Shown here: positions 1 through 18,516 of the stretch, in pieces
Numbering within the stretch: position 1 is the first letter of the stretch
How the letters are laid out: the number at the start of each line of letters is the position of its first letter
Source of the DNA: a virus
Taxonomy: Duplodnaviria > Caudoviricetes
Reading direction: 5' to 3' (one strand)
IMG/VR virus record: IMGVR_UViG_3300020192_000047
Location: 1-33,549 of that record
Length of the DNA stretch: 33,549 nt
Notes under the pieces: generated by a model
Told to the model about the DNA's origin: nothing
Databases searched by the model: none
The model's input: the letters and a program-made list of their open reading frames with translations, nothing else
Position numbers and translations under genes: made by a program

Positions 1-190
1 GCCGTCAACAACTCGAGCACCGGTGCCCTGTCATGCCGAGTCCAGCCACCAGGTATGCGCTCCGTACACATGCGCCGAATTGAGCCTGGCGGCCGTGAAT
101 TTTTTGACCCCCGGCATGTCCGTTTTTTCTCGAGCGAGCGCGGCGGCTTTGGCCATCCCCCCGCGTGCCTCTTTCCAAACCAGGAAAAAA

Positions 191-991
191 ATGCGAAATA
201 CGAGCATGCGCGGCAGACCCCCAAAGGGTGCTATCCCTGTTGACTGGTCCAACATCCGGATTCTTTGGGAAGCCGGCTCCTCGATTGGGGAAATATCGGC
301 GCGGCATCCTATTACCTCGCGCGCGATTCTTTATCGTGCGGAGAAGGGGGGATGGGATCGGGTGGCGCGGACGCAGGCGCTCGTGGAGAGGCATCAGGCA
401 CCCGGGAAGTTCTTCAAGGTCCCGGAGGGCACTCCTCCTCGGCGGCCGGAATCTGAGCGCACTTGGCAGGAAAAGAGCACCCCGCAGGCTTGGGTGGAGG
501 CGTTGGATAGGGTGACGCGGCCGGAGTGGGGAGACATGTTTCCGAAGGTGGAGCTGGCGAATGTGCTGAACAATCTGACGAAGTGCATGCCGCTGGGATT
601 GGCGTGCGATCTGGCGGGGATCACGGAGCGGGCGAGTCAGGCGTATCGGCAGCGGGAGCCGAGGCTGGACCAGATGTTCTTGCAGGCCAGGGCGATGGCG
701 GCCGAGTCGATGATCGACAAGATCAGCGCCGACAAGGATTGGAAGTCGGCGGCGTGGTTGCTCGAGCGCGGGATTGCGCGGGCGGAGTTCAAGCCGGACG
801 AGGTGACGGGCAAGGAGAAGCTGGTGATCGAGATCAATGTTTCACGCGACCAGGCGATTGCCTCGAGCGCCGGGGTGATCGATCTGACGCCGGACGCGGG
901 GGTGGAGTACGTCGGCGGAAAATGGATAGCTTCAGGCAGCGAAGCGGTCCTGCTTCCCAAGGCCGAGGATCTCCCCAAGGGTTTGACGTAA
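191..991 (+). CDS. terS: Terminase small subunit (HTH module plus second TerS-like module)
   Basis: Lies directly upstream of terL with a TAATG overlap at 989-993. N-terminal DWSNIRILWEAGSSIGEISARHPITSRAILYRAEKGGWDR is a TerS-type HTH; LACDLAGIT...DWKSAAWLLER is another TerS-like signature. Start moved from 23 to ATG 191 (AGGA upstream); ATG 206 is also possible. Confidence 0.7.
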   Translation: MRNTSMRGRPPKGAIPVDWSNIRILWEAGSSIGEISARHPITSRAILYRAEKGGWDRVARTQALVERHQAPGKFFKVPEGTPPRRPESERTWQEKSTPQAWVEALDRVTRPEWGDMFPKVELANVLNNLTKCMPLGLACDLAGITERASQAYRQREPRLDQMFLQARAMAAESMIDKISADKDWKSAAWLLERGIARAEFKPDEVTGKEKLVIEINVSRDQAIASSAGVIDLTPDAGVEYVGGKWIASGSEAVLLPKAEDLPKGLT

Positions 992-2478
992 TGGCGACGT
1001 GGAAGCTCGATTACACGCCGTCCGAGAAACAGCGGGTTTTCCATGCCGTCAAGACGAGGCAAATCCTCTATGGCGGGGCGGCCGGCGGTGGGAAATCGCA
1101 TGCGCTGCGCATGGACGGCATCCTCACTTGCCTGCAAAATCCGGGATGCCAGGGATATCTGTTCCGGCGAACCTACCCGGAGCTCAAGGACAACCACCTG
1201 ATCCCCATCCAGCAAATGCAGATCCCGCCCGAGGTCGCGGCCTGGCGGGAGACCGATCGCAAGCTTCTGTTCCACAACGGCAGCTTCATGCAGTTTTGCT
1301 TCGCCGAAGACCTCAACGACATCTTCAAATACCAGGGCAGCGAAATGCACTGGCTCGGGATCGACGAGGGCGCCCTGTTCCTCGAGGACCAGCTCAAATT
1401 CCTGCGCACACGAGTCCGCTTGGGTGGGTTCGCGCCGGCTCAGGCCGATGTTCTCCCGAGGATCGCGATCGGCAGCAATCCCGGAGGCCCCGGACATAAT
1501 TTCCTCCGGCGGGTGTTCATAGATCAGGCGCCCCCGATGCACGTCTTCCATGATCAGACCACCAAGACCAAGCTCAATCCCGGCTGGACAAGCGTCTATA
1601 TCCCGGCCCGCATGGACGACAACCCGCATTTGGACACCCAGTCCTATGAAGGCTCGTTCACGGCGCTGTCCCTCGAGCGCGCCAGGGCCCTGCGCGACGG
1701 AGATTGGGATGTGATCTCCGGCGCCGCGTTCTCGATGCTGGACAGGACCAAGCACATGCTCCGGCCGTTCCGGCCCCCGCGGCACTGGACCCACGTCATG
1801 GCGATGGATTGGGGAACCGCAAAGCCGTTCTCGGTCGGCTGGTATGCGGTGAGCGAGGGTGCGCTCCTCAAGGAGTCGGGGCGCTGGCCTGAGGTCTATC
1901 TCGCCCCCGGGGCCATCGTGCGGTTTGCGGAATGGTATGGCTGGAATGGGGAGGCCGACGCCGGCTGCCGCATGAGCGCCGCGCAAGTCGCCAAGGGCAT
2001 CCTGGACCTGGAAGCGGAAATGGAGTTGCCGCCGATCGATGTGCGGGTTTCAGATCCGCAAATGTGGGCAAGCCAGGACGGGCCCTCTCCCCAACAGAAT
2101 ATGCGCGTCGCCACGCAAGGGCGCATCGTGCTTCGCCAGGGACGTCGCGATCGCAAGGCGAATTATACCACGATGGTCTCGCGCCTGGTCGGCGAGCAGG
2201 ACCGCTCTGCTTGGCGTCCGGGCTTCTACGTGACCGAGAACTGCCGGCATTTCTGGCGCACGGTGCCGAGCCTGATCCTCGACGATGTCGAGCCCGACAA
2301 GGGCCCCGCGACTCGGCATCAGGAGGACCATTGTTACGACGAAGTTGCCTTTGCCCTGGGAACATGGAGTAAGGTGACGACACAGGCGGATCGTGAACTC
2401 GAGGAGGTTCTCGAAATGGGTAGGGAAATGACAGGAGGCCTGTCGAGCGATCCCTACTCGGTGAGACGCAGACGATAG
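991..2478 (+). CDS. terL: Terminase large subunit
   Basis: Walker A YGGAAGGGKS, Walker B LGIDE, SNPGGPGH coupling motif, RNase H-like nuclease residues (MDWG, VSDP, EDHCYD). The true start is ATG 991 (MATWKLDY), inside the 526..2478 ORF. Confidence 0.95.
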   Translation: MATWKLDYTPSEKQRVFHAVKTRQILYGGAAGGGKSHALRMDGILTCLQNPGCQGYLFRRTYPELKDNHLIPIQQMQIPPEVAAWRETDRKLLFHNGSFMQFCFAEDLNDIFKYQGSEMHWLGIDEGALFLEDQLKFLRTRVRLGGFAPAQADVLPRIAIGSNPGGPGHNFLRRVFIDQAPPMHVFHDQTTKTKLNPGWTSVYIPARMDDNPHLDTQSYEGSFTALSLERARALRDGDWDVISGAAFSMLDRTKHMLRPFRPPRHWTHVMAMDWGTAKPFSVGWYAVSEGALLKESGRWPEVYLAPGAIVRFAEWYGWNGEADAGCRMSAAQVAKGILDLEAEMELPPIDVRVSDPQMWASQDGPSPQQNMRVATQGRIVLRQGRRDRKANYTTMVSRLVGEQDRSAWRPGFYVTENCRHFWRTVPSLILDDVEPDKGPATRHQEDHCYDEVAFALGTWSKVTTQADRELEEVLEMGREMTGGLSSDPYSVRRRR

Positions 2479-2510
2479 GGGGGAATCAGCATGAATCACG
2501 CCAGGGAGCC

Positions 2511-3299
2511 ATGACCCTGATCTTCTGGTATCCGGATAGCGCGCCCCATGACCTTGGGGAGAATCTCGCGCGTGCGTTCGGCGACGCCAAGCCGCTCTCA
2601 GAACTCGCCAAGGGGGCTTTGGGTGATGTCAATCTCTGCTACGGCATCCTGCGCGGCGGGGAGGAGTTGCATCGCCTGTGCCGGCTCATGAACAAGGATT
2701 TCATCCACGTCGATCACGGGTTTTGGGGGCGCACAGGCAACCTCAACTCCGTCAAGGAGGGGTATTTTCGGTTTTCGCTGAACTCGCAGGTCCAGCGGCA
2801 AGTCCGCGCCCCGACTCCGAAGGACTTCGTTCGCGCCGAACTCCTGGTGGCGAGAGGGTTGTTCAATTTGCAAGCCAGGCGGGGATGGCGAGAAACAGAC
2901 ACCATACTTTACCAGCCTCCCAGTTCCTACATGGCGGCCTATTACGGCTTGCCGGGGGATTTCGACGCCAAGCAGATCGCGAAGCTCAATGCGGACTTTC
3001 CCAATGCCCCCGTCCGCCAAATCCTGAAGGGCGAGAGAGGCGTCGGCTCCGAGGTCGGGATGTTCGTCAGCTTCAACTCGGCCGCCGGGCTTCATGCCCT
3101 GGAGCTCGGGCTCGAGGTGCGCAATACCTGGGTGGATTCCCTGTGGTCCAACGGGATGGCGGCTCTCCCCGATGAAGATTGGAAACACTCCCGCTCAGTC
3201 CTATTCTGCTATCTCGCCGGCAGAACATTCGATTTCATCGAACTGCGCACCGGCCTGGCCTATGAGCACATGCTCGACAATCAAACCATCCCGAGGTGA
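2511..3299 (+). CDS. Putative GT-B glycosyltransferase (KpsS/KpsC capsule-synthesis-like)
   Basis: GGGAG RBS. FVSFNSAAGLHALELGLEV resembles the VTxNSxxGxEAxxxGxxV motif of KpsS-like proteins; HVDHGFW and YFRFSLN motifs also present. Confidence 0.55.
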   Translation: MTLIFWYPDSAPHDLGENLARAFGDAKPLSELAKGALGDVNLCYGILRGGEELHRLCRLMNKDFIHVDHGFWGRTGNLNSVKEGYFRFSLNSQVQRQVRAPTPKDFVRAELLVARGLFNLQARRGWRETDTILYQPPSSYMAAYYGLPGDFDAKQIAKLNADFPNAPVRQILKGERGVGSEVGMFVSFNSAAGLHALELGLEVRNTWVDSLWSNGMAALPDEDWKHSRSVLFCYLAGRTFDFIELRTGLAYEHMLDNQTIPR

Positions 3300-3302
3300 A
3301 AA

Positions 3303-3407
3303 ATGGACAAGATCAGAGGCCTGCTCTCCCGCATCCCCACGCTCGCCTATGTCGCCATCGTAGGCGTCTTCCTCGGCATGGTGGTCATTCGATTACTTGT
3401 CCGCTGA
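3303..3407 (+). CDS. 34-aa single-pass membrane peptide
   Basis: GAGGTG RBS then MDKIRGLLSRIPTLAYVAIVGVFLGMVVIRLLVR*. One hydrophobic helix; fills the intergenic gap. Not in the ORF track (too short). Confidence 0.6.
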   Translation: MDKIRGLLSRIPTLAYVAIVGVFLGMVVIRLLVR

Positions 3408-3453
3408 ATGAAACGCATGGTCAAAATCATAACCAAGAAAATAAGTAGGTCTC

Positions 3454-3792
3454 ATGATCAAGGCGAAATCGGCTAAGGCCAAGGGCCGCAAGCTCGAGCA
3501 ATGGGTCACGGCCGAATTGCAAAACATCGGTCTCGCCGCTCGCCGCCAGCCGGGCTCAGGCGCGTTCGAGGCCTTCCCTCATGATGTCAGCATGACCCTG
3601 CCGGATGGTTCACACGCCATCGTCGAATGCAAACAGAGGAAAAAGGACGCATGGGCTACAGGCGAGCGCTGGCTCGGACGCGCCGACATGCTGGTCGTGA
3701 GGGTCGACCCACCGCCGGGAAAGCCTATAATCGAGCCGCGCGTGTACATGCGCTTCGGCGTTCTCAAGCGACTCATTGGCCAGAAAGGATAA
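3454..3792 (+). CDS. Holliday junction resolvase, Hjc-like PD-(D/E)xK nuclease
   Basis: KAKGRKLEQWV...RRQPGSGA...HDV...IVECK matches the Hjc-type motif set. Confidence 0.8.
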   Translation: MIKAKSAKAKGRKLEQWVTAELQNIGLAARRQPGSGAFEAFPHDVSMTLPDGSHAIVECKQRKKDAWATGERWLGRADMLVVRVDPPPGKPIIEPRVYMRFGVLKRLIGQKG

Positions 3793-3796
3793 TCCC

Positions 3797-4177
3797 GTGG
3801 ACATTTTCGACCCGCTCGTCAACGATCCAACCCCCGGCTTGCGCATCCACAACCCGGGCAACGTCAAGCACCCCAAGAAGGGCATCCTGCGCGGCGGCTC
3901 CTCAAGGCAGCCCCACCGCAACCTGCACTGCTTCACGGACTCGGTGTACGGCATCCGCGCGCTGGCTAACCGAGAGATCCAAGGCGCGGTCCCTGGCGTC
4001 ACCACGCTCGGCGACCTGTTCCCCACCCCTGTGATCAACCTCGCCGGCCTCGATCGCACGACGGTCTTCGTCCGGGAAACCCATCTTGAGAAACTGGTTG
4101 CGGCCTCCATCGAGCGCCGCTGCGGATGGCAGCCCTATACCCAGGAGACCATCGCCACCGGCTGTCGAATGGCCTGA
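3797..4177 (+). CDS. Degenerate lysozyme-like virion protein (RNNNPGNI family, PM2 P5-like)
   Basis: PGLRIHNPGNV...FTDSVYGIRAL...TTLGDL...GWQPYTQETIATG. AAGGA RBS before GTG 3797. Several family motifs appear to be missing. Confidence 0.55.
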   Translation: MDIFDPLVNDPTPGLRIHNPGNVKHPKKGILRGGSSRQPHRNLHCFTDSVYGIRALANREIQGAVPGVTTLGDLFPTPVINLAGLDRTTVFVRETHLEKLVAASIERRCGWQPYTQETIATGCRMA

Positions 4178-4206
4178 TCACAATTCTGCATCCGGTGAGG
4201 TGTTTC

Positions 4207-4914
4207 ATGAAAATATCGATCGCAGTGCCTCAGAGTGCGATATCGAACATCAAGACAAAGGCAATGCGCATCGCGGTGGTGATACCGTCCCGGGGACGCC
4301 CCAATCAGCTTGGCCGCGCCATCGACAGCATCGGTGACGCGGCCCAGGTTTATGTCGGACTCGAGAGAGGAGATCCCCAGCCCCATCCCGTGGCGCCCGT
4401 CCTGCTGTTCCCCGACGACACCCCCACAACGTTCAAGTGGAACGCGCTGGCGGACTACGCGGTCTCGCACGGCGCCGACATCGTGATCCTCGGCGCCGAT
4501 GACATCCTGTTCGAGACGCGAGGCTGGGACGAAATGCTGCGTGAGCGCTTCGTGCGCTTTTCGGATCGCATCCTGGCGGTCGGATTCAACGACGGACGCT
4601 CGCACGGCGCGGTGCCGCATTATGCGGTGAGCAAGGAATGGATCGCGGCCCTGGGCTATTTCTGCCCGCCGATCTTCCATCACTGGTGCGTCGACACATG
4701 GACCGAGTCGGTAGGTCATCGCATCGGCCGCTTCCAGTACGCCCACGACATCATGGTGCGCCACGATACCGTCAAGCTCACCGGTGTGATCGACGAGACG
4801 CACGCGCGCATCCGTCGCGGTGTCTGGCACGAGCGGGACAAGTCGCTGTTTGGGATGTCCGAACACTATCGCGAGGCCGACGCTGCGATCCTGCGCCGGT
4901 TGACCCGAGCATGA
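4207..4914 (+). CDS. Glycosyltransferase family 2 (GT-A fold)
   Basis: VVIPSRGRP first strand, KWNALA, GADD (DxD-like), FHHWCVDTW, VRH. Start is ATG 4207 (GAGGTG RBS) or ATG 4264. Confidence 0.8.
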   Translation: MKISIAVPQSAISNIKTKAMRIAVVIPSRGRPNQLGRAIDSIGDAAQVYVGLERGDPQPHPVAPVLLFPDDTPTTFKWNALADYAVSHGADIVILGADDILFETRGWDEMLRERFVRFSDRILAVGFNDGRSHGAVPHYAVSKEWIAALGYFCPPIFHHWCVDTWTESVGHRIGRFQYAHDIMVRHDTVKLTGVIDETHARIRRGVWHERDKSLFGMSEHYREADAAILRRLTRA

Positions 4915-5912
4915 GAGTTCTCATCACCGGCATCGCCGGCTTCCTCGGCAGCCACCTCGCCGACGCCCTGATCGCGGCAGGGCACACGGTCTCCGGCATC
5001 GACGATCTGAGCGGCGGGGCCATGCGCAACGTGCCGGGGAAAGCGGGCATGACAAAGGCCGATTGTTGCAATCATGATCTGATGCACAGCGTGTTTGACA
5101 TCATGCGTCCCGAGATCGTTTACCACCTCGCCTGCCATCCCCACGAGGGCCTCAGCGTGTTCTCGCCGGCCTTGGTCGCCGGCAGCGTCTTCCAGGGCAG
5201 CGTCGCCGTGTTTTCCGCAGCCGCCCAGCACAAGGTCAAGCGCGTGATCTTCGCAAGCTCCATGGCGCGCTATGGGGAGCAGTGGGGAGCGCCTTATGAC
5301 GAAGACATGACCCCGGCTCCGCTTGACCCCTATGGCGTCGCGAAGCTTGCCGCCGAGGACACTCTGCGGATTCTCGCACGCGCGCACAGCTTCGAGCACG
5401 TCATCGCCGTGCCGCACAACATCATCGGCGTGCGCCAGAAATACACGGACCCCTACCGTAACGTCGCGAGCATCATGCTCAATCGCATCCTCTCCGGGAA
5501 AGAGGTGATCATCTACGGCGACGGCAATCAGGTCAGGCGGTTCTCCCCTATCGAGGATTGCATCGGCTCATTGGTCAGGATGCTCGACTGGAACGTCGAC
5601 GGGGAGATCATCAATATCGGCCCCGATGGCGACGGCATCGCGATCAACGAGCTCGCGCGGCTGTGTCACGCGGCGGCGCATCTTGCATGGCGCAAGCCGA
5701 CCTATTATCCGGCGAGACCACTCGAAATGAAGATCGCGACTTGCAGCTCGAACAAGGCGCGCCTGATGCTGAGCTTCTCCCCAAAAGGCAATCTCGAGAA
5801 ATGCCTGAGAGACATGGCGAACAGCATCATCGCGTCGCCGTTCGACTATTCGCTTCCCCTCGAAATCATCAACGACAAAACCCCGGAGACGTGGCGTGAA
5901 CGAAAGATTTGA
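4911..5912 (+). CDS. NAD-dependent NDP-sugar epimerase/dehydratase (extended SDR, GalE-like)
   Basis: MRVLITGIAGFLGSHL (GxxGxxG), ASSMARYG, YGVAK (YxxxK), HNIIG, IYGDGNQVRRF. ATGA overlap with the upstream gene. Confidence 0.93.
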   Translation: MRVLITGIAGFLGSHLADALIAAGHTVSGIDDLSGGAMRNVPGKAGMTKADCCNHDLMHSVFDIMRPEIVYHLACHPHEGLSVFSPALVAGSVFQGSVAVFSAAAQHKVKRVIFASSMARYGEQWGAPYDEDMTPAPLDPYGVAKLAAEDTLRILARAHSFEHVIAVPHNIIGVRQKYTDPYRNVASIMLNRILSGKEVIIYGDGNQVRRFSPIEDCIGSLVRMLDWNVDGEIINIGPDGDGIAINELARLCHAAAHLAWRKPTYYPARPLEMKIATCSSNKARLMLSFSPKGNLEKCLRDMANSIIASPFDYSLPLEIINDKTPETWRERKI

Positions 5913-6483
5913 ACAGCTTTGGGAAGCCTCCTGCAAGAGACTGCCGACCGTCGTGCAGGAGAAACGCGAATTGTTCGCGCTGTTCTCTCTCATGAGAGAA
6001 ATCGGCTGCGAGAGCTATCTCGAGATCGGCACGTCCAACGGCGGCAGCCTGTGGGTCCTGGCCGCCGCGGTCGACGGCACGCTCACCGTCGTCGATATCT
6101 GCGAGGCCAAGAGCAAGGCGCTGTTCGATGAAGCGGTGGCCCACACCCAGGCCCATGCGATCTGCGGCGACAGCACCGATCCCGCGACCGTGGAGAGGGC
6201 GCGCGGCGAATACGATGTCGTCATGATCGATGGCGGGCACAGCTACGAAGTTGTCTCGGCCGACATGAAGAACTACGGCCCCATGGCCAGGAAGATGATC
6301 GTGTTGCACGACATCAACCATCGCGATGTCCAGAAGCTTTGGGGAGAGATCGCGGCGTCGATCCCATTGCGCTGCCTGATGATCAGCACCCCGCAATCCA
6401 CCATGGGGTTCGGCGTGATCTTCAAGGAACCATCGGGCTGGCTCGCCAATGGCGAGCACAAGCAAACCCTGGTGACGCGGTGA
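5896..6483 (+). CDS. Class I SAM-dependent methyltransferase (Methyltransf_24-like, sugar O-methyltransferase type)
   Basis: YLEIGTSNGGS motif I, GDST, IDGGHSYEVVSAD, VLHDI. Confidence 0.88.
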   Translation: MNERFEQLWEASCKRLPTVVQEKRELFALFSLMREIGCESYLEIGTSNGGSLWVLAAAVDGTLTVVDICEAKSKALFDEAVAHTQAHAICGDSTDPATVERARGEYDVVMIDGGHSYEVVSADMKNYGPMARKMIVLHDINHRDVQKLWGEIAASIPLRCLMISTPQSTMGFGVIFKEPSGWLANGEHKQTLVTR

Positions 6484-7157
6484 CCCAGCACACACTGGCC
6501 TGCATGGCCGCCACGGCCCTGCTACGCAAACAGCCGGCAGAGAGCATGTGGGACATCGGCAACCAGCGTTTCACCGCCACCGGCTGGCGGGCCATCAAGA
6601 GCACCGGCGACTTCTATCGCTCCTTCGGCTGCAACTATCGGGCGATAGATGTTAACTCGAACATGGAGGCCGACATCGCGGACCTCAATCATCCGCTCGA
6701 GGGTCCAAGATTCCCCCCGCGCGATCTGGTGGTCAACAACGGCACCAGCGAACACATCTTCAACCAGGCGCAGTTGTTCAGGACCATCCACGAGCTCTCG
6801 AAAAACTGCATGCTGCACATCCTGCCCTTCACGCCGTGGATCAATCATGGCTTCTTCAACTACAACCCGATCCTGTTCCGCGATCTCGCGGCGGCGAATC
6901 ACTACGCGTTCGAGTTCTTCTGGATCGGTGGCCGCGATGGTCGCTACGTGGAGATAGCGCCCGGCTCCCTCCACGCGTTTGATGGCAAGCAGGCCGCGTC
7001 GCTATTGAAGGAGGTACGCAATCAGATCGGCGAACAGGAGGCGTTCCTGGTCGTTGCGCTGCGCAAGACCGAGGACACGCCGTTTCGCGCGCCCATTCAG
7101 GGGCGCTATCTGGCGGACATCGAGTCCACGGGGATGCGCATCGCCTATGAAACTTGA
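6480..7157 (+). CDS. Class I SAM-dependent methyltransferase-like protein
   Basis: DIGNQ, YRAIDV, ADLNHP, DLVVNNGTSEHIFNQ, HGFFNYNP. GTGA overlap places the start at 6480. Confidence 0.75.
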   Translation: MTQHTLACMAATALLRKQPAESMWDIGNQRFTATGWRAIKSTGDFYRSFGCNYRAIDVNSNMEADIADLNHPLEGPRFPPRDLVVNNGTSEHIFNQAQLFRTIHELSKNCMLHILPFTPWINHGFFNYNPILFRDLAAANHYAFEFFWIGGRDGRYVEIAPGSLHAFDGKQAASLLKEVRNQIGEQEAFLVVALRKTEDTPFRAPIQGRYLADIESTGMRIAYET

Positions 7158-7863
7158 AATCGTCGCCCTATCCACCTCGCCGTTTCCGTTCGCGATCCTG
7201 CGCCACGAGATCGGCATCCCGCGCCCTGATTGGCGCGACATCGCCGGCGACGAGACCCGTCCCAATGTGCGCGTGGACATGAGCGTCAACACCATCCTCA
7301 CGACCTTCCGCGCCCCGGCATGGAAGGTCTTGGCCGCGGCCTGCACCTCGCAGAGTTACTGGTCCGATTTCTATCTCCGAAGCTTCCGTGACGCGATCCT
7401 CGCCAGCTATCCCGACATCGAGAGCCGAGTGGGGAAGCCCATCGACGAGTGGACCGCCGGCCGGCGCTACATGAGCAGCGGGGCCGACGTGCTTCTCGAT
7501 TTCCAAATCGGCATCAATACTCCGGCAACCATGCCTGGGAAGGTCAGCATCCCCCATATCGACAACCCGCGCGAGCTGATCGCCATGCTGCTCTACCAGA
7601 AGGACCCGGGCGACGAGCAGGGCGGTGATCTGCGGATTCTGTCCGCCGAGAACCCGAAATTCGTACGGACCACCGATCTCGCGCCGGACATTCCCTATCG
7701 CCATATCCTCACCGTGCCCTATGGCGTCGACACCGGCATCGCGTTCCTGCAAACCCCGCATTCCCTGCACGACGTCACGCCGCGCCTGCCCGGCCCCTTC
7801 CCGCGGCTGCTTATCAACCTGATCGTCGAAATGAAATTCCCCCTGTTCGAGGTCCCAAGATGA
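7147..7863 (+). CDS. 2OG-Fe(II) oxygenase superfamily protein
   Basis: PHID (HxD), LLY...GGDL, SLHDV (distal His), PRLLIN (2OG-binding Arg). Start at ATG 7147 (MKLEIV). Confidence 0.85.
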   Translation: MKLEIVALSTSPFPFAILRHEIGIPRPDWRDIAGDETRPNVRVDMSVNTILTTFRAPAWKVLAAACTSQSYWSDFYLRSFRDAILASYPDIESRVGKPIDEWTAGRRYMSSGADVLLDFQIGINTPATMPGKVSIPHIDNPRELIAMLLYQKDPGDEQGGDLRILSAENPKFVRTTDLAPDIPYRHILTVPYGVDTGIAFLQTPHSLHDVTPRLPGPFPRLLINLIVEMKFPLFEVPR

Positions 7864-8600
7864 GCGACGTCATGGAAATCTTCATCGGCTACGACGAGCG
7901 CGAGCGCGACGCCTACGATGTCTGTGCGTTCTCCTTGCAGCGCAAATCCTCGATCCCGCTTCACATCCAACCCCTAAAGCACAAGGATCTGCGTGCGCGA
8001 GGATTGTTCGATCGACCTTGGATCATCGACACCGTGAACGGCAGGTTCCGCGATCTGCGCGACGGCCGCCCCTTCGCCACCGAGTTCGCGTTCACCCGGT
8101 TCCTCGTCCCGCTGTTGATGAACTTCAAAGGCTGGGCGGTGTTCATGGATTGCGACATCCTGGCGCTCGCCGACATCGGGCAAATGAAACTCGAGTTCAA
8201 CCCCGCCAGGGCGGTCATGGTCGTGAAGCAGAACCATATCCCGCAGAACGAAACCAAGATGGACGATCAGCCGCAGATCGCGTATCCGCGCAAGAACTGG
8301 TCATCGGTCATCGCGTTCAACTGCGGCCACGCCTCGAACAGGGCGTTGACGGCAAATCTGATCAACCATTCCCCGGGGCGCGACCTGCATCAATTCTCGT
8401 GGCTCGATGACAACGAGATCGGTGAATTGTCGCCGGGCTGGAACTTCCTCGTTGGGCACACAAAGCACGCCATCAAGCCGAAGCTCATGCACTATACGGA
8501 CGGCGGGCCGTGGTTTGAGCACATGAAGAACGTCCCGTTTTCGGGGCTGTGGAACAACGAATACGATCACATGATGAAGGTCAGAGGCGCCTATGAATGA
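7860..8600 (+). CDS. GT8-like glycosyltransferase (plant CDI-like / phage family)
   Basis: IFIGYDERE, TEFAFTRFLVP, FMDCD (DxD), YPRKNWSS, WNFLVG, HYTDGGPW. Confidence 0.9.
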   Translation: MSDVMEIFIGYDERERDAYDVCAFSLQRKSSIPLHIQPLKHKDLRARGLFDRPWIIDTVNGRFRDLRDGRPFATEFAFTRFLVPLLMNFKGWAVFMDCDILALADIGQMKLEFNPARAVMVVKQNHIPQNETKMDDQPQIAYPRKNWSSVIAFNCGHASNRALTANLINHSPGRDLHQFSWLDDNEIGELSPGWNFLVGHTKHAIKPKLMHYTDGGPWFEHMKNVPFSGLWNNEYDHMMKVRGAYE

Positions 8601-10611
8601 TTCCATGAATTGGGGAGCCGCTCTCGGAATCCCCAACAAGACCAGAAATGTCATGGTCGTGACCTCGTGGTCCCCGGCGGGCGCCGCGCTCTATGGCGAC
8701 GACTGGTCCGCCTCCGCCGCGCGGTTCTGGCCGCCGAGCATGCGGCCGGTCGTCATCACCGATGCGGAACTCGAAAAAGATCCCGAGTTCGTCGCGTTCA
8801 TGGCTCGCCACGCGCACCGGAGGATGAATCCTCATGACCATGATTATGATTTTCGTATGGATCTGGTTCGTTTCGCTCACAAGGTCTTCGCGCTGAAGGT
8901 CGCGATCGATTCGGTAGATACGGACTGGCTGATCTGGCTCGATGGCGACGTCACCACGCGCGACCGTATCACGGAGGAGTTTCTCGACTCGATCCTGTTG
9001 GAGGATCATGACGGCGTCCTGCTTTCCCGCTCCGGCACCGCGTCGGCTCCGGAATGCGGCTTCATGGCGTTCAATCTCAGGCGTGGCGGCATCGAGTTCC
9101 TGCAAGGCTTCATCAAGCTCTACACGAGCGACGCGGTGCTCCAAATGGCCGAGCACCACGACAGCCATGTTTTCATGGCGGCGGTGCTCGCGCACATGGA
9201 GGCCAAGGGCTCGAAATGGCTCGATCTGGCGCCCAGGGGCGGCGGCAAGCACGGCCTCGACGCGTTCGAGGTGAGCCCGCTGCATTCGTTCTTCACGCAT
9301 CGCAAAGGTAACCGGAAGTTCACCGAGCTGCCGCCGTGCTCGAATGAGCGCATCCTGGGCATGCTGGCGGCCGGCAGGGGGGTGACCCGCATCCAGGCGA
9401 AGCCCTGTCTGTGGCCCAGGACAGCCCCGGAGGCCGGGTCCGTCGTCATCATCGAATGCGGCATGCACGGCATCGATAACATCAGACAGACCGTTCTCAA
9501 ATACGCGAACACGCTGCAAATCTATGACGGCTACTACACCGCCGATGCCCATGGGTCTCACATCGACGACACGCTTCATGGCGTCAACTCGGTGGTCAAT
9601 GACCTCATCGTGTTCGACTCGATCGAAACGGCGGTCAAGGGATTCATCCATATCGCGGTTCCCGCGGGTTTCCCCAACATCCCCGTATCGATTCCGATCT
9701 TCACCCACCGCATGCTGGCGCCGATCAACAAGAGCGATGTCACCAAGCTTTCCAAGGATGCCTACAAGACGAATTTTCTGCTGCAAACGCAGAACTGCGT
9801 CAGCAACGAGGAGATCCACGCGAACATCACGGCCAACATGCTGCTGATGCCGAAATGGATCACCAACACCTATCCCCACCGCAACCGCGCCATCGTGGTC
9901 TCCGGCGGACCCAGCATTCACTTCCCCGAGACCATGGCGGAGATCCGCAGAGAGATCGCGGCCGGCGCCTATGTGCTGTGCGTCAAGCACGCGCATCAAC
10001 ACCTGATCGCCAGCGGAATCATCCCCTGGGGATGCGTGCTGCTCGATCCTCGCGAGCACGAGGGCACCTCAACTCATGGCCATTCCCGTCGTGACCTCAT
10101 CCCCAAGGCTCATCCCGGCGTGCGCTATTTCGTGGCGTCGATGGTCCACCCCAGCGTCACGAAGAAGCTGCTGGACAGCGGCGGCAAAATCATCGGCTGG
10201 CATGCCGCCGTAGGCGCGGACGAGAAGAAAATCCTGCCCCCGGAGCACGCCGCGATGCTGATGGGAGGCGGCACCTCGTCGGCGGGGAGGACCGTTTTGC
10301 TCGCCTGGCAATTCCTCGGCTTCGGGTCGATCGGGTTGTACGGCTTCGATTCCTGCCACCTCGATCACAGCAGTGTCGATCGCAACGCCCGCCACCAGGA
10401 CGGGACGCCGAAATATGTGATGATGGATATGGCGGTTCAGGGCGCCCACAAGGAGTTCCTGACTGACCGGGATATTCTCTCCCAGGCGCAGGACTTCACC
10501 CGCTTCATGAAGGAAGCGCCATGGATTCCCTGGGACTCGCATGGCGAGGGCATGGTGGCCTTCCTGTGGGAGAACACCAAGGGCAAACTCCCCAAGATCG
10601 ACTCATACTAG
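8593..10611 (+). CDS. Multidomain protein: GT-A glycosyltransferase + degenerate methyltransferase-like segment + Maf/DUF115 (MptE-like) domain
   Basis: N-terminal RFAHKVFAL, WLDGD, ECGF, HDSHVF, HRKGNRK. C-terminal AIVVSGGPS, LLDPRE, ASMVHP, GGGTSSAGR, LGFGSIGLYGFDS. Confidence 0.8.
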   Translation: MNDSMNWGAALGIPNKTRNVMVVTSWSPAGAALYGDDWSASAARFWPPSMRPVVITDAELEKDPEFVAFMARHAHRRMNPHDHDYDFRMDLVRFAHKVFALKVAIDSVDTDWLIWLDGDVTTRDRITEEFLDSILLEDHDGVLLSRSGTASAPECGFMAFNLRRGGIEFLQGFIKLYTSDAVLQMAEHHDSHVFMAAVLAHMEAKGSKWLDLAPRGGGKHGLDAFEVSPLHSFFTHRKGNRKFTELPPCSNERILGMLAAGRGVTRIQAKPCLWPRTAPEAGSVVIIECGMHGIDNIRQTVLKYANTLQIYDGYYTADAHGSHIDDTLHGVNSVVNDLIVFDSIETAVKGFIHIAVPAGFPNIPVSIPIFTHRMLAPINKSDVTKLSKDAYKTNFLLQTQNCVSNEEIHANITANMLLMPKWITNTYPHRNRAIVVSGGPSIHFPETMAEIRREIAAGAYVLCVKHAHQHLIASGIIPWGCVLLDPREHEGTSTHGHSRRDLIPKAHPGVRYFVASMVHPSVTKKLLDSGGKIIGWHAAVGADEKKILPPEHAAMLMGGGTSSAGRTVLLAWQFLGFGSIGLYGFDSCHLDHSSVDRNARHQDGTPKYVMMDMAVQGAHKEFLTDRDILSQAQDFTRFMKEAPWIPWDSHGEGMVAFLWENTKGKLPKIDSY

Positions 10612-10619
10612 CCGGGCGG

Positions 10620-10648
10620 TTCACGCGGGGCCCGGAAGGCTGTAGGCT
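10620..10648 (+). promoter_or_regulatory. Candidate sigma70-like promoter upstream of portal
   Basis: TTCACG-17 bp-TAGGCT in the only gap before the portal; overlaps a CCGGGC/GCCCGG inverted repeat (10612-10635). Confidence 0.35.
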
Positions 10649-10683
10649 CCGGCAGGGACTCAACTCAGGATTCGGAGTGAAGA

Positions 10684-12855
10684 ATGGTTGATTCCAGTAA
10701 CTTTCGCGGCGACTCCTCAAAGATCAAGAAGCCCCGCAAGGCGCCGAAACAACTGAGCGGCATGCTCGTCAACATCGCCGACTCCCTCCCCGAGGCCGAT
10801 CTGGCGGCGATCGCGGAAATCTGCGTCGAGGATTTCGAGGCCGACCGCTCGAGCCGCGCCGAGTGGGACTCGATGCACGCCGATTGGGTGGCGGTCTACA
10901 ATCAGTGCGACGCCCCGATCAATCCGCCTTGGCAGAACTCGTCGGACGAGTCGATCGGGCTCCTGACCGAAAGCTGCAACTCATTCCAGGCCCGCGCCTA
11001 TAAGGCGTTCTTCCCCAGCCGCAACCCGATCACGGCGCTCGCGGTCGGCAAGCAGAGCCCCACGATGAGCGAGCGGGCCAAGCGCGTCGGGAAATATCTG
11101 CAATGGAGCCTGTTCACGCGCGACCAGACCTACAAGGAGGAGAAGTCGGCGATGCTCCTCCGGGTCGCCATCCACGGCTCGGATTTCTCCAAGACCTATT
11201 TCGACCCGGTCATGAACAAGATCGTGGTCCGCCCGGTGCGCGCGCAGGACCTCTATGTGCCCTACAGCGCCGGCCCGGTGAACATCGAGGACGTGCCGAG
11301 AAAGACCGAGCTGATCCACCTTGGTCTCAACGAGGGCCGCTGGCGGGCGAAGGCGGGATACTTCTCCGTCGTGCCGGTCCCGATGGCGCAGGGCATCAAT
11401 GCCCAACCTCAGCAACAGCAGGCCGACAGCGACGGCGGCGTCAAGCCGGGCTCGCTCTCGGACTCCGAGGACTACAGCGAGATCGTCGAGCAGCATCGCG
11501 ATCTCGACCTGGACGGCGACGGCATCGCCGCGCCCTACAAGGTGTGGGTCGACGTGACCGCGCGCGTCACGCTGCGCATCGAGGTCCGCTACGACGTCGA
11601 TGATCTGGGCCGCCCCACGAATGGCAAACTGCCGATAGAGGAATACACGCATTATCGATTCCTGGTGAACCCGGACGGCTTCTACGGCTACGGCCTGGGC
11701 TTCCTGATCGGCAAGACCAACATCGCCATGAACAAGATGTTGCGTCAGTACATCGACGCCACGACGCTCGCCATCCACGGCAACATGAGCGGTTTCATCA
11801 GCGACGAGCTCAACGTCTCCAAGGGGCCGGTGAAGCTCGAGCTGGGATCGTTCAAGACCGTCTCGGCCTCGGCGGAGCAGATCCAAAAAGGCATCAAGAC
11901 AATGGACTTCAAGCCTCCCAGCGATGGCTTGATGAAGGCGATGGGGCAGCTTGAAAACCGCGCCCAGCGCATCGGCGCCGCGACGGACGCGCTCTCCGGG
12001 GACATCCAGAAGGTCATGCAACCGACCACGATCATGACCATGGTGGAGCAGGGCTTGATGCTGTTCACCTCGGTCCAGGAGTTCCTTCTCAACTCGTGGA
12101 GCAAGGAGCTCAACAAGGTCTACCGGCTCAACAGCCTGTATTTCCGGGGCGAGGAATGGTTCGTCGCGATCTCGCCGGCCGGCGCCGAGGAGGCCTTCGT
12201 CAAGGAGGAGGATTTCCGCGACGACATGATGATCATGCCGGTGGCCGACCCGCGCATGTCCAGCCAGCAGACCCGCATCCAGCGCGCCCAATTCCTCTAT
12301 GACTTCGCGCTGAAAAACCCGCTGATCGCATCGCGGCCCGAAGTTCTCCTCAAGGTCACGCGCCGGCTGCTCGAGGAGATGGATTTCGACTCGATCGACG
12401 AGCTCCTCCCCAAGGACGTCAAGGAGCTTCCCCCGTCGCAGCCCGACCCCAAGGTGCAGGCGATCCAGGCCAAGGCGCAGGCGGAACAGGCGAAGATGGC
12501 CGGCCAGCAGCAGAACGAGCAGCAGAAGATCGGCCTGCTCGCCCAGAAGACCAAGGTGGAGAGCGACGCCATCGTGCAGAAATCCCAGGTCGATGCCCAG
12601 GTCGCCATGACGAAAATGGGCATCAACGAGGAAATGGCCCGGCAAAACGCCGGCCTCAAGAGCGCGAAGATGTCGAGCGACATCGAGATGTCCCGCGCCA
12701 AGACCGCACACGAGCGGGACGCGCGGACCTCGGAACTCGCCGGCAACCACGCCTTGAGCAAGGCGGAGTCGCGCGCCGCGATCAGGCTGGACCGTGAGAA
12801 GGCCCGCGCCGATGTCTTCACCAAGGCCATGAGCGGCGGAGCGCCGAAGAAATGA
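10684..12855 (+). CDS. Portal protein with long C-terminal coiled-coil (P22-like barrel)
   Basis: 723 aa, GGAG RBS. DRSSRAEW, PPWQNSS, GSDFSKTYFDP, GFYGYGLG, PVADP motifs are typical of podoviral portals; Q/A/K-rich helical tail. Confidence 0.88.
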   Translation: MVDSSNFRGDSSKIKKPRKAPKQLSGMLVNIADSLPEADLAAIAEICVEDFEADRSSRAEWDSMHADWVAVYNQCDAPINPPWQNSSDESIGLLTESCNSFQARAYKAFFPSRNPITALAVGKQSPTMSERAKRVGKYLQWSLFTRDQTYKEEKSAMLLRVAIHGSDFSKTYFDPVMNKIVVRPVRAQDLYVPYSAGPVNIEDVPRKTELIHLGLNEGRWRAKAGYFSVVPVPMAQGINAQPQQQQADSDGGVKPGSLSDSEDYSEIVEQHRDLDLDGDGIAAPYKVWVDVTARVTLRIEVRYDVDDLGRPTNGKLPIEEYTHYRFLVNPDGFYGYGLGFLIGKTNIAMNKMLRQYIDATTLAIHGNMSGFISDELNVSKGPVKLELGSFKTVSASAEQIQKGIKTMDFKPPSDGLMKAMGQLENRAQRIGAATDALSGDIQKVMQPTTIMTMVEQGLMLFTSVQEFLLNSWSKELNKVYRLNSLYFRGEEWFVAISPAGAEEAFVKEEDFRDDMMIMPVADPRMSSQQTRIQRAQFLYDFALKNPLIASRPEVLLKVTRRLLEEMDFDSIDELLPKDVKELPPSQPDPKVQAIQAKAQAEQAKMAGQQQNEQQKIGLLAQKTKVESDAIVQKSQVDAQVAMTKMGINEEMARQNAGLKSAKMSSDIEMSRAKTAHERDARTSELAGNHALSKAESRAAIRLDREKARADVFTKAMSGGAPKK

Positions 12856-13052
12856 CGCCCCTGTGGAAGGATATGGACGCCGACGAGATCGAAATTTGGC
12901 GACGTCATCCGGCCACAAAATGGCTGCTCAAGACCGTCGCGGATGCCGAGACGGTGGGGGCCTATCGCGCGGCGACGGACATGCTTAGTCTTGGGCGCGC
13001 CCAGGGCATGGAAGCCGCGTTCGTGCTGATCCGCCGCCACATCGAGAAGTGA
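12852..13052 (+). CDS. Small hypothetical protein following portal
   Basis: ATGA overlap with the portal stop; WRRHPATKWLL...LGRAQGM helical protein in the usual post-portal position. Confidence 0.7.
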   Translation: MTPLWKDMDADEIEIWRRHPATKWLLKTVADAETVGAYRAATDMLSLGRAQGMEAAFVLIRRHIEK

Positions 13053-14185
13053 CCTTCATGAAGCGTCGCCGCCGCAGTCGTCCCCAACAATTCGAAGCCG
13101 CGTTGGGCCGCATGATTCCGCGTGACCAAGAGAGCGAAGGCCTCGCTGCCGAGGGACGCTTTGGGGATACAGAACTGGCGCATGTCTCCCCGCGCGAGGC
13201 GGCCATTCTCAAGGCGCTCGGCGGCTCCGGCACCCGTAATCCGCGCTCCGGCTTGCGTGAGTATTTCGGCGCTGATGACGGTGCCCACAGCGGTGGTGAT
13301 TTCTCCAGTGAGACCGGGGGTATCGGCATGGGGAGAGATGACGCGAGCGCCGTCAGCGGCGGTGATTTCTCCAGTGAGCCCGGGATCGGACAATCCCCCG
13401 TGGGGACTCCTACGCCAGGCGAAGGCGATTTCTCCAGTGAGCCGGGACTCGGAACTTCTCCGGGGCTCGGCAGGGGGCCAACTTCTCCGGTGGAAGACGG
13501 CTTCGGCGCGCAGCTCGCCGGCATGCTCGGACTCCCCACCAGCTTCTCTGGCCTGGCGGGCAAATTCGACCCGCGCACCCAGGAAGGCATGTTCAACGCG
13601 CTGACGGGGCAGGTCCCGGGCCTCGGCATGGCGAGCCGGGGCATGCTCGAGGGCACCCGGGCGCTCGGCGGCGCGATCAACTCCGGGCTCCAGTCGATGG
13701 GGATCTACGGCTCCGCTCCGGCGGAAGCGATGGATTTCGGCAATGCCGCCCGCTTCGGCGGCGACCAGTTCGCGGGTATCGACATGGGGAGAGAGGACGC
13801 GGGCTATGACCGAGATCGCGTCGGCCGCGCGATCGGAGCGACGCCGGTCTCCAACCCCGGTCCCAAATACGGCCGCAGCGATGCCGGCGGCGTGCCGGAG
13901 GAAATCTCGTCCTTCCTCGGACCCGGCATGAGCGACCTCCAGTCCCGCGCGCTGATCTCGACCTACGGCACGCAAGGGGTGAACTCCGGGTTTCGATCCG
14001 ACCCGGTGAAACGGTACTATGCTCGCCTCCTCAACAATGGGATCATTGATGACGACGGGAAGCCCCAGGCGCAGCCCTATACACTGCCGATCGAGCATCA
14101 GTATTGGCAGAGCGTCCTAGGCAAGCCCGCTTCCGACCCATCGAAGTTCGATGACATCTACGGCTCGATTTCACGCTACCTTTGA
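13049..14185 (+). CDS. Gly-rich putative internal/structural virion protein with GDFSSE repeats
   Basis: GRFGDTELAHVSPREAAILKALGGSGTRNPRSGLREYF is a motif I recall from podophage virion proteins. Low-complexity G/P/S middle. Start could be 13049, 13058 or 13112. Confidence 0.7.
   Translation: MTFMKRRRRSRPQQFEAALGRMIPRDQESEGLAAEGRFGDTELAHVSPREAAILKALGGSGTRNPRSGLREYFGADDGAHSGGDFSSETGGIGMGRDDASAVSGGDFSSEPGIGQSPVGTPTPGEGDFSSEPGLGTSPGLGRGPTSPVEDGFGAQLAGMLGLPTSFSGLAGKFDPRTQEGMFNALTGQVPGLGMASRGMLEGTRALGGAINSGLQSMGIYGSAPAEAMDFGNAARFGGDQFAGIDMGREDAGYDRDRVGRAIGATPVSNPGPKYGRSDAGGVPEEISSFLGPGMSDLQSRALISTYGTQGVNSGFRSDPVKRYYARLLNNGIIDDDGKPQAQPYTLPIEHQYWQSVLGKPASDPSKFDDIYGSISRYL
13288..13441 (+). repeat. 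Three imperfect direct repeats (core GATTTCTCCAGTGAG)
   Basis: Copies within 13288-13312, 13354-13378 and 13427-13441, each encoding GDFSSE in frame. Confidence 0.9.
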
Positions 14186-14999: not shown

Positions 15000-15323
15000 A
15001 TGGCCAAGAGGCTCACTCCGCTTTTTGCGCGGATCACAGTGCAGGTTGACACCGCACAGCAGACCATCACCCAAAAGTACGCGGCCTTGCGGAAAGTTGG
15101 GTTTTCAGTTCCAGCGATCGTCGAACAGAAGCAGATCCCGGATGAGGGGACCATCGTCGGCGTCGGCGCGGACTGCGCCATCGTCAAGCTCGGCGACCGG
15201 GTGCTGTTCGGCAAATGGGCAGCGAAGGAGATCGGTTTTGCGCCTGGCCACTTCGTTATGATGGAGGAGGACGTCATCGGCCTGATCACCGGCTCTGACG
15301 ATGCCGCCGAAAAGGTGGCGTGA
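15000..15323 (+). CDS. groES: GroES/Cpn10-like co-chaperonin
   Basis: LTPLFARITV...EGTIVGVG...VKLGDRVLFGKWAAKEI...MMEEDVIG; GAGGA RBS. Confidence 0.88.
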   Translation: MAKRLTPLFARITVQVDTAQQTITQKYAALRKVGFSVPAIVEQKQIPDEGTIVGVGADCAIVKLGDRVLFGKWAAKEIGFAPGHFVMMEEDVIGLITGSDDAAEKVA

Positions 15324-16703: not shown

Positions 16704-17291
16704 ATGACGGACGCACCATTCGGCTTCCAAGCCATTCGCAATCTTCACGGAGGTCAGCCCCGCGCCCGCGTCTATCGCGTCACGGCGACCGGCAACCAGA
16801 CTGGAATCGCGGTCGGCGATCCCGTCGAACTCAACGGCGCCGGCCTCGGCATCGCCAGGCTCAGCGCGGGGTCGATCGCCACCCGTCGATGCCTTGGAGT
16901 TATCTCCGAGCTTTACAACGACTCCGGGCGACCCCTTACCTTCACGCAGCCGACAAACGGGCCATTCCTGCCCGCAGCGGTGGCGGGATGGGCGACGGTC
17001 TACGACAGCCAGGCTACTACATTTATCGTCCAGTGCGACGCTTCGGCGGCTGAGACGATGGTGGGCAAGTACGTCTCCCTCACCGGCAACGCCATCAACA
17101 CGGCGGCCGGAACATCCCAGATGATGGTCAAGGTGGCTTCCGCCGACACCAGCATCAAGGCGTTCCAGGTCATCGGTATCTCCCCGACTGAGCGTCAGGG
17201 TCTCGGCTCGTATGCCCTGGCCTCGGCGTGGGGCAACGCGGGTATCGATGTCGAAGTGCGCATTGCGCTTCACGCCTTTACCAGCTCGTAA
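16704..17291 (+). CDS. Minor capsid / cement protein
   Basis: DAPFGF N-terminus, IAVGDPV, beta-rich; immediately upstream of the major capsid gene; GGGAG RBS. Confidence 0.7.
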   Translation: MTDAPFGFQAIRNLHGGQPRARVYRVTATGNQTGIAVGDPVELNGAGLGIARLSAGSIATRRCLGVISELYNDSGRPLTFTQPTNGPFLPAAVAGWATVYDSQATTFIVQCDASAAETMVGKYVSLTGNAINTAAGTSQMMVKVASADTSIKAFQVIGISPTERQGLGSYALASAWGNAGIDVEVRIALHAFTSS

Positions 17292-18268: not shown

Positions 18269-18516
18269 ATGCTTTGCAAAGTCGAAAACTGCACGGCATC
18301 ACCATGTCGCCATGCACGATCGCCAGAAGGGCCTTTGCGCGAGGCCCCGAGGAGACGATCATTCGCGGCAAAAAGATCGCCCTTGTTGTCGACCATTGCC
18401 ATGAGACCGGGAAGGTTCGGGGCCTTCTCTGCCGTCCTTGGGGAGTAGGGGCCTTGCGGCACAGCGAGGCGCTGCTAGCCTCAGCCATCGCATTCCTAGG
18501 TCCGGATAGGGACTGA
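18269..18516 (+). pseudogene. Decayed endonuclease VII-family (HNH-type) free-standing endonuclease
   Basis: Motif pieces lie in different frames: MLCKVENC; KLHGIT; AMHDRQKGLCA; LVVDHCHETGKVRGLLCRP...LLASAIAFL. The CN after GLLCxx is lost. Confidence 0.8.

Follow-up and report, generated by a model that had tools for sequence, protein, structure and literature searches.

What would a phage build with a set of glycan enzymes encoded between its large terminase and portal genes, and on which molecule would it build it? The question is raised by a sequence of 33,549 nucleotides from an uncultured tailed phage (IMG/VR record IMGVR_UViG_3300020192_000047; "the window" below is this whole stretch), in which eight open reading frames (ORFs) for such enzymes, all on the plus strand, lie between terL and the portal gene (Table 1), as a preliminary description of the sequence had reported. 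They encode a glycosyltransferase (GT) of GT-B fold (ORF1), a GT2-type enzyme, a nucleoside diphosphate (NDP)-sugar epimerase, two S-adenosylmethionine (SAM) methyltransferase-like proteins (MT1 and MT2), a 2-oxoglutarate (2OG)-Fe(II) oxygenase, a GT8-like enzyme, and a fusion of a GT-A domain to a Maf-like domain. The reading we favor, at a probability of roughly 0.6, is a late, cytoplasmic O-glycosylation of the phage's own virion proteins, primed with an acidic sugar. The gene order (terS, terL, cassette interval, SU10-like portal, GroES-like protein, scaffold, capsid, adaptor, nozzle, ejection-type proteins, fiber, holin) points to a phage of the podovirus type, with ERF, YqaJ and AAA genes in the early region. 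The host is probably Gram-negative, and a gene transfer agent (GTA)-type holin together with the taxa of the GT8-like homologs would place it in the Alphaproteobacteria.

Conservation at the terL-portal junction divides the cassette into two parts. Loci were collected with terL as the query, so that the resulting 36 were not selected for the cassette. Among the 26 close loci (70-100% identity, the studied phage included; 14 ORF1 types at 95% identity), ORF1, a resolvase gene and the GT8-like gene are each present in 26/26, the GT-A domain in 25/26 and the Maf-like domain in 23/26, the missing GT-A and Maf-like domains belonging to three contigs that end early. The GT2, epimerase, MT1, MT2 and oxygenase genes occur in this phage only and are absent from all 25 close relatives. 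In relatives, their place is taken by Methyltransf_23-type genes, one or two in number, and often by an FkbM gene. The notion that the eight genes form one fixed pathway must therefore be dropped, five of them being accessory. None of the cassette families is found in the 10 distant terL loci (23-36%). A Maf-selected search returned 26 distant loci (32-47% identity) with GT-A in 23, GT8-like in 22, ORF1-like in 17 and all four in 13; 12 of the 26 have terL upstream and the portal downstream. Locus L280 repeats the GT2-epimerase-MT1 block of this phage, and the cassette families are repeatedly fused (GT-A with Maf, methyltransferase with Maf, GT8 with an ORF1-like domain, MT2 with the oxygenase). 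A control podovirus that shares the head module (capsid identity 42%) but has no cassette carries terL right beside the portal gene, which marks the cassette as something added there. Taken together, this distribution argues that the core, comprising ORF1, the GT8-like enzyme and the GT-A+Maf-like fusion, is old and fixed at the terL-portal junction and that the remainder is a swappable tailoring pool.

The last seven genes are indeed chained by stop/start overlaps, of 4, 17, 4, 11, 4 and 8 nt, the 17-nt and second 4-nt overlaps relying on GTG starts at 5896 and 6480 where a codon-score caller favored 5953 and 6504. The eight genes and their orientation thus stand as first described, but not the single block: three overlooked non-glycan genes, for a 34-residue hydrophobic protein, a Holliday-junction-resolvase-like nuclease and an NPGN-motif protein, interrupt it after ORF1. 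Since the resolvase-like gene lies just 3' of ORF1 in every close locus, the interval counts a gene for DNA processing among its fixed elements, and one sub-lineage also holds a Mom-family gene there (L004:7364-7840; PF25680, E 0.0013). In base composition the eight enzymes (GC 0.58-0.65; third codon positions, GC3, 0.76-0.83) are similar to the structural genes. A promoter/terminator scan of positions 1-13100 is uninformative: it gave 4 and 13 sites, where shuffled sequence gave 2.8±1.7 and 9.2±3.2. In line with the earlier claim, none of the enzymes shows a convincing transmembrane segment by hydropathy (maximum over 19 residues 0.77-1.67, against 1.79 for the holin).

The fusion suggests what the priming step may be. 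It matches PF01973 at 40.6 bits against a cut-off of 34.6; between the two domains of the original "GT-Maf/DUF115" assignment lies a third that had been overlooked. This middle domain aligns with only the C-terminal half of the Methyltransf_24 domain that most of 47 homologs carry joined to their Maf-like domain, with no SAM motif I aligned, and for that reason is probably a methyltransferase remnant. The GT-A domain carries a DxD motif (residues 117 to 119), and the Maf-like domain carries D485, S562 and D586. In VIA fold comparisons, which rest on a low-confidence model of the fusion (predicted local distance difference test, pLDDT, 58), the C-terminal domain matches Maf (5MU5) with Z 11.9 (root-mean-square deviation, rmsd, 5.0 over 204 aligned residues) vs Z 10.8 for MptE. 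A 23-sequence profile of the domain gives E 9e-10 over 156 positions for 5mu5 vs 8e-6 over 88 positions for MptE. Maf E324 and D415, described as catalytic and at positions needed for activity (bioRxiv 2020.06.03.131540), align with D485 and D586, both invariant in the 23 sequences, and S562 falls on Maf T392, the residue that spacing equates with the conserved Ser ahead of the second acid. Where MptE has the Asp residues of its TDGD motif, the Maf-like domain has Ser/Thr. [quoted passage not shown] These alignments place the C-terminal domain nearer to Maf, the flagellin O-glycosyltransferase, than to MptE, with the catalytic acids of Maf retained. It shares with the Maf enzymes (PF01973/DUF115; Magnetospirillum Maf) the central fold, the profile match and the E324/D415 equivalents; what sets it apart is its fusion to a GT-A domain and a methyltransferase remnant, and the position of its gene next to those for the head. 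A scan of 37 window proteins detected no flagellin.

The same comparisons bear on the idea that there is no single pathway at all, the Maf-like domain being an MptE-type pyrophosphokinase or small-molecule enzyme and the interval merely a tolerated insertion site. PF01973 spans both MptE and Maf, with the Z scores given above, an MptE-like Arg is conserved in the Maf-like domain, and unrelated genes (resolvase, Mom-like, helix-turn-helix-like) also occupy the interval. However, the profile fits Maf both better and over a longer stretch, the TDGD Asp residues face Ser/Thr, and the four GT families co-occur, with several fusions among the cassette's domains, which makes this account improbable.

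The N-terminal domain of the fusion has as its best fold match the PBCV-1 major-capsid glycosyltransferase (PDB 2P72/2P6W; capsid role taken from the entry title; Z 12.4), with GT6 enzymes at Z 11.0 (VIA). The resemblance is one of fold: the PBCV-1 enzyme belongs to a eukaryotic virus, identity is ~10%, GT6 scores come close and the match is not target-specific.

ORF1 is another component of the core. Its AlphaFold2 (AF2) model has a pLDDT of 92, and its top fold matches among 48,161 chains (VIA) are KpsC (Z 10.0 and 9.8), WbbB (9.3) and KrkA (7.8), the next match being at 6.7; against KpsC the rmsd is 4.3 over 220 aligned residues (Foldseek E 1e-6). ORF1 thus has the modified GT-B fold of GT107, GT99 and GT140. 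β-Kdo transferases are defined by a QxxxD nucleophile motif and a (K/R)xHP motif that binds cytidine monophosphate (CMP) (PMC12887879). ORF1 has QPPS in place of QxxxD and no HP, and the motif pair is found in 0/27 aligned homologs and 0/17 distant podovirus homologs; the former "KpsS-like GT-B" label therefore survives for the fold but not for the defining motifs. The full QxxxD...(K/R)xHP pair is kept in the ORF1 homologs of L037 and L146 and in 33/231 paralogs from GT8-selected, mostly myovirus-type loci. Judged by its model, ORF1 is Kdo-transferase-like, not a member of that class: with the retaining β-Kdo transferases KpsC (GT107), WbbB (GT99) and KrkA (GT140) it shares the fold, a conserved Gln and, in its C-terminal domain, an SxNS...AL stretch, and unlike them it has neither the Asp nucleophile motif nor (K/R)xHP, so that it need not follow their double-displacement mechanism. 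The ORF1 fold also recurs in four proteins of Tetraselmis virus 1, an algal giant virus (E 7e-10 to 3e-7, BFVD).

The remaining families differ in how firmly they can be named: the epimerase and MT1 calls of the preliminary description are firm, whereas GT2 is called from phrog_14945, the oxygenase from PF13640 and its Atlas neighbors, MT2 from a homolog, and the GT8-like enzyme from a DxD motif and a homolog. In the GT8-like family, estimated at ~5900 stretches in IMG/VR, D97 and D99 are invariant; the window protein itself has no Pfam match, while a 38%-identical homolog passes the PF01501 cut-off and another is annotated GT24. The GT2 homolog in L103 matches PF00535, and GT2 also occurs in the distant podoviruses L280 and L284. 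The product of the epimerase is not assignable, every NCBIfam equivalog match being below cut-off. MT2 has 2444 relatives at E<=0.001, and its L284 homolog matches Methyltransf_23 (PF13489) at E 9e-6; PF13640 is found in 21/30 Atlas neighbors of the oxygenase, and the two are fused in the distant phages L282 and L284. Sequence searches of the PDB with ORF1, the GT8-like enzyme, the whole fusion and MT2 as queries gave chance matches only.

With position, co-orientation, conservation, folds and catalytic residues established, we infer all catalytic steps and the acceptor as follows. By analogy with the action of Maf on flagellin, the Maf-like domain would move Kdo or a nonulosonate from the host's CMP-sugar pool to Ser/Thr of a structural protein, and ORF1, the GT8-like enzyme and the GT-A domain of the fusion would extend or branch the chain. 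The swappable set may tailor the glycan, with GT2 and the epimerase giving an extra sugar, MT1 methylating it and MT2 acting as a pair with the oxygenase; the accessory enzymes would thereby supply methyl groups and a hydroxylation, and relatives would tailor with Methyltransf_23 and FkbM enzymes in place of this set. Capsid or tail would thus bear a methylated, probably acidic glycan that varies between strains. What the phage gains is conjecture: less sticking to mat or biofilm matrix or debris, or a shield from proteases or grazers.

Related gene sets also accompany structural genes in other phages. In the siphovirus of L037, a Maf-like gene precedes the scaffold gene, and GT-A, methyltransferase, Capsule_synth-like and GT8-like genes come right after the coat gene; podovirus MW202512 has a GT8 gene between capsid and tail genes; and podovirus MW202713 (L146) encodes, just before terL (2165-6581), a gene annotated as TibC-like, a GT-A, a methyltransferase, a Kdo-transferase-like ORF with canonical motifs and a DegT aminotransferase. 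Cultured CcrColossus, which grows on Caulobacter, carries, between its tail and lysis genes, Maf-like gp126, ORF1-like gp127 and gp128, GT8-like gp129, methyltransferase gp130 and GT9 gp131; phiCbK gave no GT8-like match. As a tblastn search of 50,697 GenBank phage records returned no match to the Maf-like domain, gp126 is tied to it only via a sub-cut-off PF01973 match (E 1.5e-7). In its main text, the 2012 CcrColossus genome paper uses no "glycosyl" or "sialyl" term (PMC3556154).

Virion glycosylation, proposed in the preliminary description, is thus the best-supported reading, on the strength of the Maf acids, the core in the late head operon, the occurrence of the families in structural modules and the fact that no DNA handle was found in the genomes screened. 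It also shares with Corndog/Che8-type virion glycosylation systems the placement of GT and methyltransferase genes within the operon of head genes. As to the acceptor, no conserved Ser/Thr tail is present on the capsid protein. A 482-residue protein encoded after the capsid gene (18592-20040), with three repeats of ~160 residues and 22% Ser+Thr, is a candidate decoration protein and acceptor. Other candidate acceptors are the capsid protein (gene at 17307), the decoration-like proteins encoded at 16704, 20046 and 20778, and the fiber (31020).

A number of findings weigh against virion glycosylation. Ser+Thr enrichment, tried as a sign of an acceptor, was rejected: capsid, decoration and fiber proteins are no richer than in the control (carrier vs cassette-free control, major capsid protein 0.125 vs 0.149, decoration protein 0.169 vs 0.188). 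The fusion was compared through a poor model, as noted, and lacks the full multi-domain Maf architecture, the aligned part being chain residues 252-505 of 632. The PBCV-1 match does not discriminate between targets: some DNA-modifying phage GTs also match that enzyme best (Pyle et al.), so it is no evidence of target. Among 77 GT8-selected loci, mostly of large-myovirus type, the ORF1/GT8/GT-A trio occurs in 57 and a Maf domain in one; the trio there lies among replication-type genes, its neighbors including gp32 and RecA along with RfaE-type and sometimes KdsA genes. GT8-like homologs include S-SCSM2R ORF261 and Mosig_00188, and the Mosig cluster, which also has a GT-A and two ORF1-like genes, sits among replication genes. 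Such clusters in pelagimyophages and S-SCSM2R are read by the authors as modification of host lipopolysaccharide (LPS) (PMC7029224, PMC12801897). The GT8-like family also extends to ~1400 bacterial stretches, most of them from Alphaproteobacteria, going by the titles of the best 80. In favor of protein glycosylation, in 35 of these best 80 loci, Pelagibacteraceae included, the GT8-like gene lies <=250 bp from a gene of one protein cluster, 17/18 scanned members of which have tetratricopeptide repeats (TPRs). The layout of the protein glycosyltransferase FlmG resembles this architecture (PMC7591256), but the GT9-like C-terminal signal of the TPR neighbors is weak (Pfam 3/29, NCBIfam 3/15), and their assignment as FlmG failed.

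As an observation in its own right, the GT8-like and TPR-protein genes (L180-L259) may form an undescribed cytoplasmic protein-glycosylation pair.

Part of this evidence, together with the fact that the fold relatives of ORF1 (KpsC, WbbB and KrkA) are all capsule or O-antigen enzymes, would suit a late modification of the host envelope through host export, either as extension or capping of LPS or capsule or as glycosylation of flagellin or pilin; the payoff would be receptors masked against superinfection, or progeny kept off the debris of lysed cells. The canonical motif pair in the ORF1 homologs of L037 and L146 and in some paralogs, the KdsB and KdsA genes near the GT8-like gene of S-SCSM2R, the abundance of the GT8-like family in alphaproteobacterial chromosomes, and the natural target of Maf, which is host flagellin, point the same way, and the pelagimyophage and cyanophage papers favor it, without a test in the accounts they give (PMC7029224, PMC12801897). 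The solubility of the enzymes and the missing flippase, on which the preliminary description had relied, do not exclude it, since KpsC and WbbB are themselves capsule and O-antigen enzymes. Lysogenic conversion, however, is unlikely because tyrosine integrase (PF00589) and serine recombinase (PF07508) were each found in 0/5 genomes, with positive controls matched (3/5 of the genomes used in these gene-absence screens are <90% complete by CheckV). Serotype-conversion (Gtr-type) cassettes, which we take to combine an integrase with membrane GtrA/GtrB/Gtr enzymes, are not resembled either, with no Gtr-family match in the 37 window proteins. Moreover, the cassette is tied to head or tail genes in several unrelated morphotypes, and late expression just before lysis would leave little time to remodel the surface. 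On balance, we regard envelope modification as the main rival, but as rather unlikely. Among the GT clusters described as "cell-wall/LPS" in pelagimyophages, S-SCSM2R and moraphages (PMC7029224, PMC12801897, PMC12619734), those of S-SCSM2R and Mosig have the GT8-like homologs named above; unlike this cassette, the clusters are mostly without a Maf domain and do not lie between terL and portal. Where these papers describe them, the clusters are given host-surface or DNA functions, without a test in those descriptions (PMC7029224, PMC12801897, PMC12619734).

DNA is the other conceivable substrate: phage DNA could be glycosylated and methylated at packaging, with the 2OG oxygenase making the hydroxyl handle, as in 5-methylcytosine-oxygenase/GT clusters. 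The cassette does adjoin the terminase and include an oxygenase, GT and epimerase pairs and GT8-like secondary GTs are described in DNA hypermodification clusters, and L004 has its Mom-like gene within the interval. Yet DNA glycosylation clusters are described as having a thymidylate-synthase homolog or a C5-methyltransferase as conserved partner (Pyle et al.; PMC13326640), and GTs without such partners are judged less likely to act on DNA (Pyle et al.). Here, ThyA-type proteins (PF00303) were found in 0/5 genomes (controls 10/14), a C5-methyltransferase (PF00145) in 1/5 and in 0/2 near-complete ones, and tRNA-guanine transglycosylase (PF01702) in 0/5, this being a tRNA-type model that may miss DpdA. 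Tet_JBP (PF12851) was likewise found in 0/5 genomes, with a positive control that was also silent; the window oxygenase groups with PF13640. It is prolyl-hydroxylase-like, fused to MT2 in relatives, and missing from the 25 close relatives, in which the GT core is retained. Finally, Maf and Kdo-transferase folds use CMP-ulosonate donors, for which the portions of the literature covered hold no report on DNA. DNA modification is accordingly very improbable.

The virion-glycosylation reading has its nearest precedent in the cluster O mycobacteriophages, in which an O-methyltransferase and three GT genes (Corndog gp35-38) lie between portal and protease (PMC4351075); the suggestion that the present pathway is more elaborate than a simple GT pair understates that precedent. 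The targets reported for the Corndog-type cassette are the capsid and the tail tube (PMC11600133, PMC11256854, citing Freeman et al. 2023), and its enzymes are reported as not found in twice-banded virions (PMC4351075, PMC11600133). Both systems place a methyltransferase and several GT genes inside the head-gene operon. They differ in position (portal-protease in a siphovirus of mycobacteria, terL-portal in a podovirus whose host is probably Gram-negative) and in the Maf-like and Kdo-transferase-fold enzymes, epimerase and oxygenase found here, a distinction made by gene content.

Table 1. Coordinates of the cassette, its interrupting genes and its boundaries in the window, with the supporting evidence
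Feature	Position	Strand	Evidence
Small terminase terS	191..991	+	PHROG terS E 2e-4; start uncertain; stop overlaps terL start
Large terminase terL, upstream boundary	991..2478	+	phrog_979 E 7e-34
Core ORF1, GT-B with KpsC/WbbB/KrkA (β-Kdo transferase) fold, non-canonical	2511..3299	+	Fold match; 26/26 close loci
34-residue hydrophobic ORF between ORF1 and GT2	3303..3407	+	Translation; no Pfam match
Holliday-junction-resolvase-like nuclease, non-glycan	3454..3792	+	phrog_244 E 5e-7; 26/26 close loci
NPGN-motif protein, lysozyme-like lead	3797..4177	+	phrog_873 E 3e-4 (weak); 1/26 loci, this phage only
Accessory GT2-type (GT-A) glycosyltransferase	4264..4914	+	phrog_14945 E 2e-20; alternative start 4207
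Accessory NDP-sugar epimerase/dehydratase, extended short-chain dehydrogenase/reductase (SDR)	4911..5912	+	PF01370 E 1e-46; GxxGxxG and YxxxK present
Accessory SAM methyltransferase MT1 (Methyltransf_24/rhamnosyl-O-methyltransferase-like)	5896..6483	+	PF13578 E 6e-13; PF04989 E 8e-6
Accessory SAM-methyltransferase-like MT2	6480..7157	+	35% identity to N-terminal halves of L282 and L284 proteins
Accessory 2OG-Fe(II) oxygenase, prolyl-4-hydroxylase-like	7147..7863	+	PF13640 E 0.036; HxD at 137
Core GT8/GT24-like GT-A glycosyltransferase	7860..8600	+	phrog_28018 E 6e-58; DxD 97-99; 26/26 close loci
Core three-part fusion	8593..10611	+	GT-A ~18-240; Methyltransf_24 remnant ~290-390; Maf-like ~393-670
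Portal (SU10-like), downstream boundary	10684..12855	+	PHROG portal E 6e-15; SU10_portal 4e-7

The window sequence matches an identical 45.7-kb IMG/VR contig (L002/G001), and relatives of 44-46 kb were recovered, one with direct terminal repeats. It is contained in 18 listed sequencing runs from microbial-mat and freshwater metagenomes, 13 of them with at least half of its words; one may be the source of the sequence and many may come from a single campaign, and no RNA run is among these 18. In four DNA runs, contigs span the interval piecewise, with no well-supported joint bypassing the cassette.

Outside the cassette, the GroES-like co-chaperonin (15000-15323), directly 5' of the scaffold gene, is kept in relatives and in the cassette-free control podovirus. 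The capsid gene is separated from the structural gene that comes next by an Endonuclease VII-like ORF (18274-18516). A second variable island of up to ~6 kb, holding small and fiber-like genes, separates the portal gene from the homolog of the gene at 13049 in L005, L009, L018, L022 and L024 and is nearly empty in the studied phage. No endolysin was identified adjoining the holin in the window, a place where two relatives carry GH108. The terL ORFs of L010 (4032-6362) and L162 are ~280 residues longer than usual, probably through inteins.

The conserved enzyme combination is apparently undescribed so far: a literature search, with most subscription papers beyond its reach, returned no paper that deals with phage virion glycosylation by Maf-like or Kdo-transferase-fold enzymes, and in the literature accessible to it virion glycosylation in tailed phages was reported for mycobacteriophages only. 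We tentatively entertain a wider proposal, possible rather than probable, in which Gram-negative aquatic phages (podo-, sipho- and jumbo phages) share an old, modular, Maf-primed virion machine that makes a capsule-like, serotype-variable acidic coat by Kdo-transferase-fold and GT-A extension, ORF1 being a new Kdo-transferase-fold family without the Asp nucleophile. CcrColossus gp126-131 offers a cultured test case for virion glycosylation by such enzymes. If that reading is true, phages of Gram-negative bacteria, too, have glycan-coated virions, made by a different chemistry of flagellin-type priming and capsule-type extension; the swappable tailoring genes would yield phage "serotypes"; and the host-LPS reading of similar clusters in SAR11 and cyanobacterial phages would be reopened.

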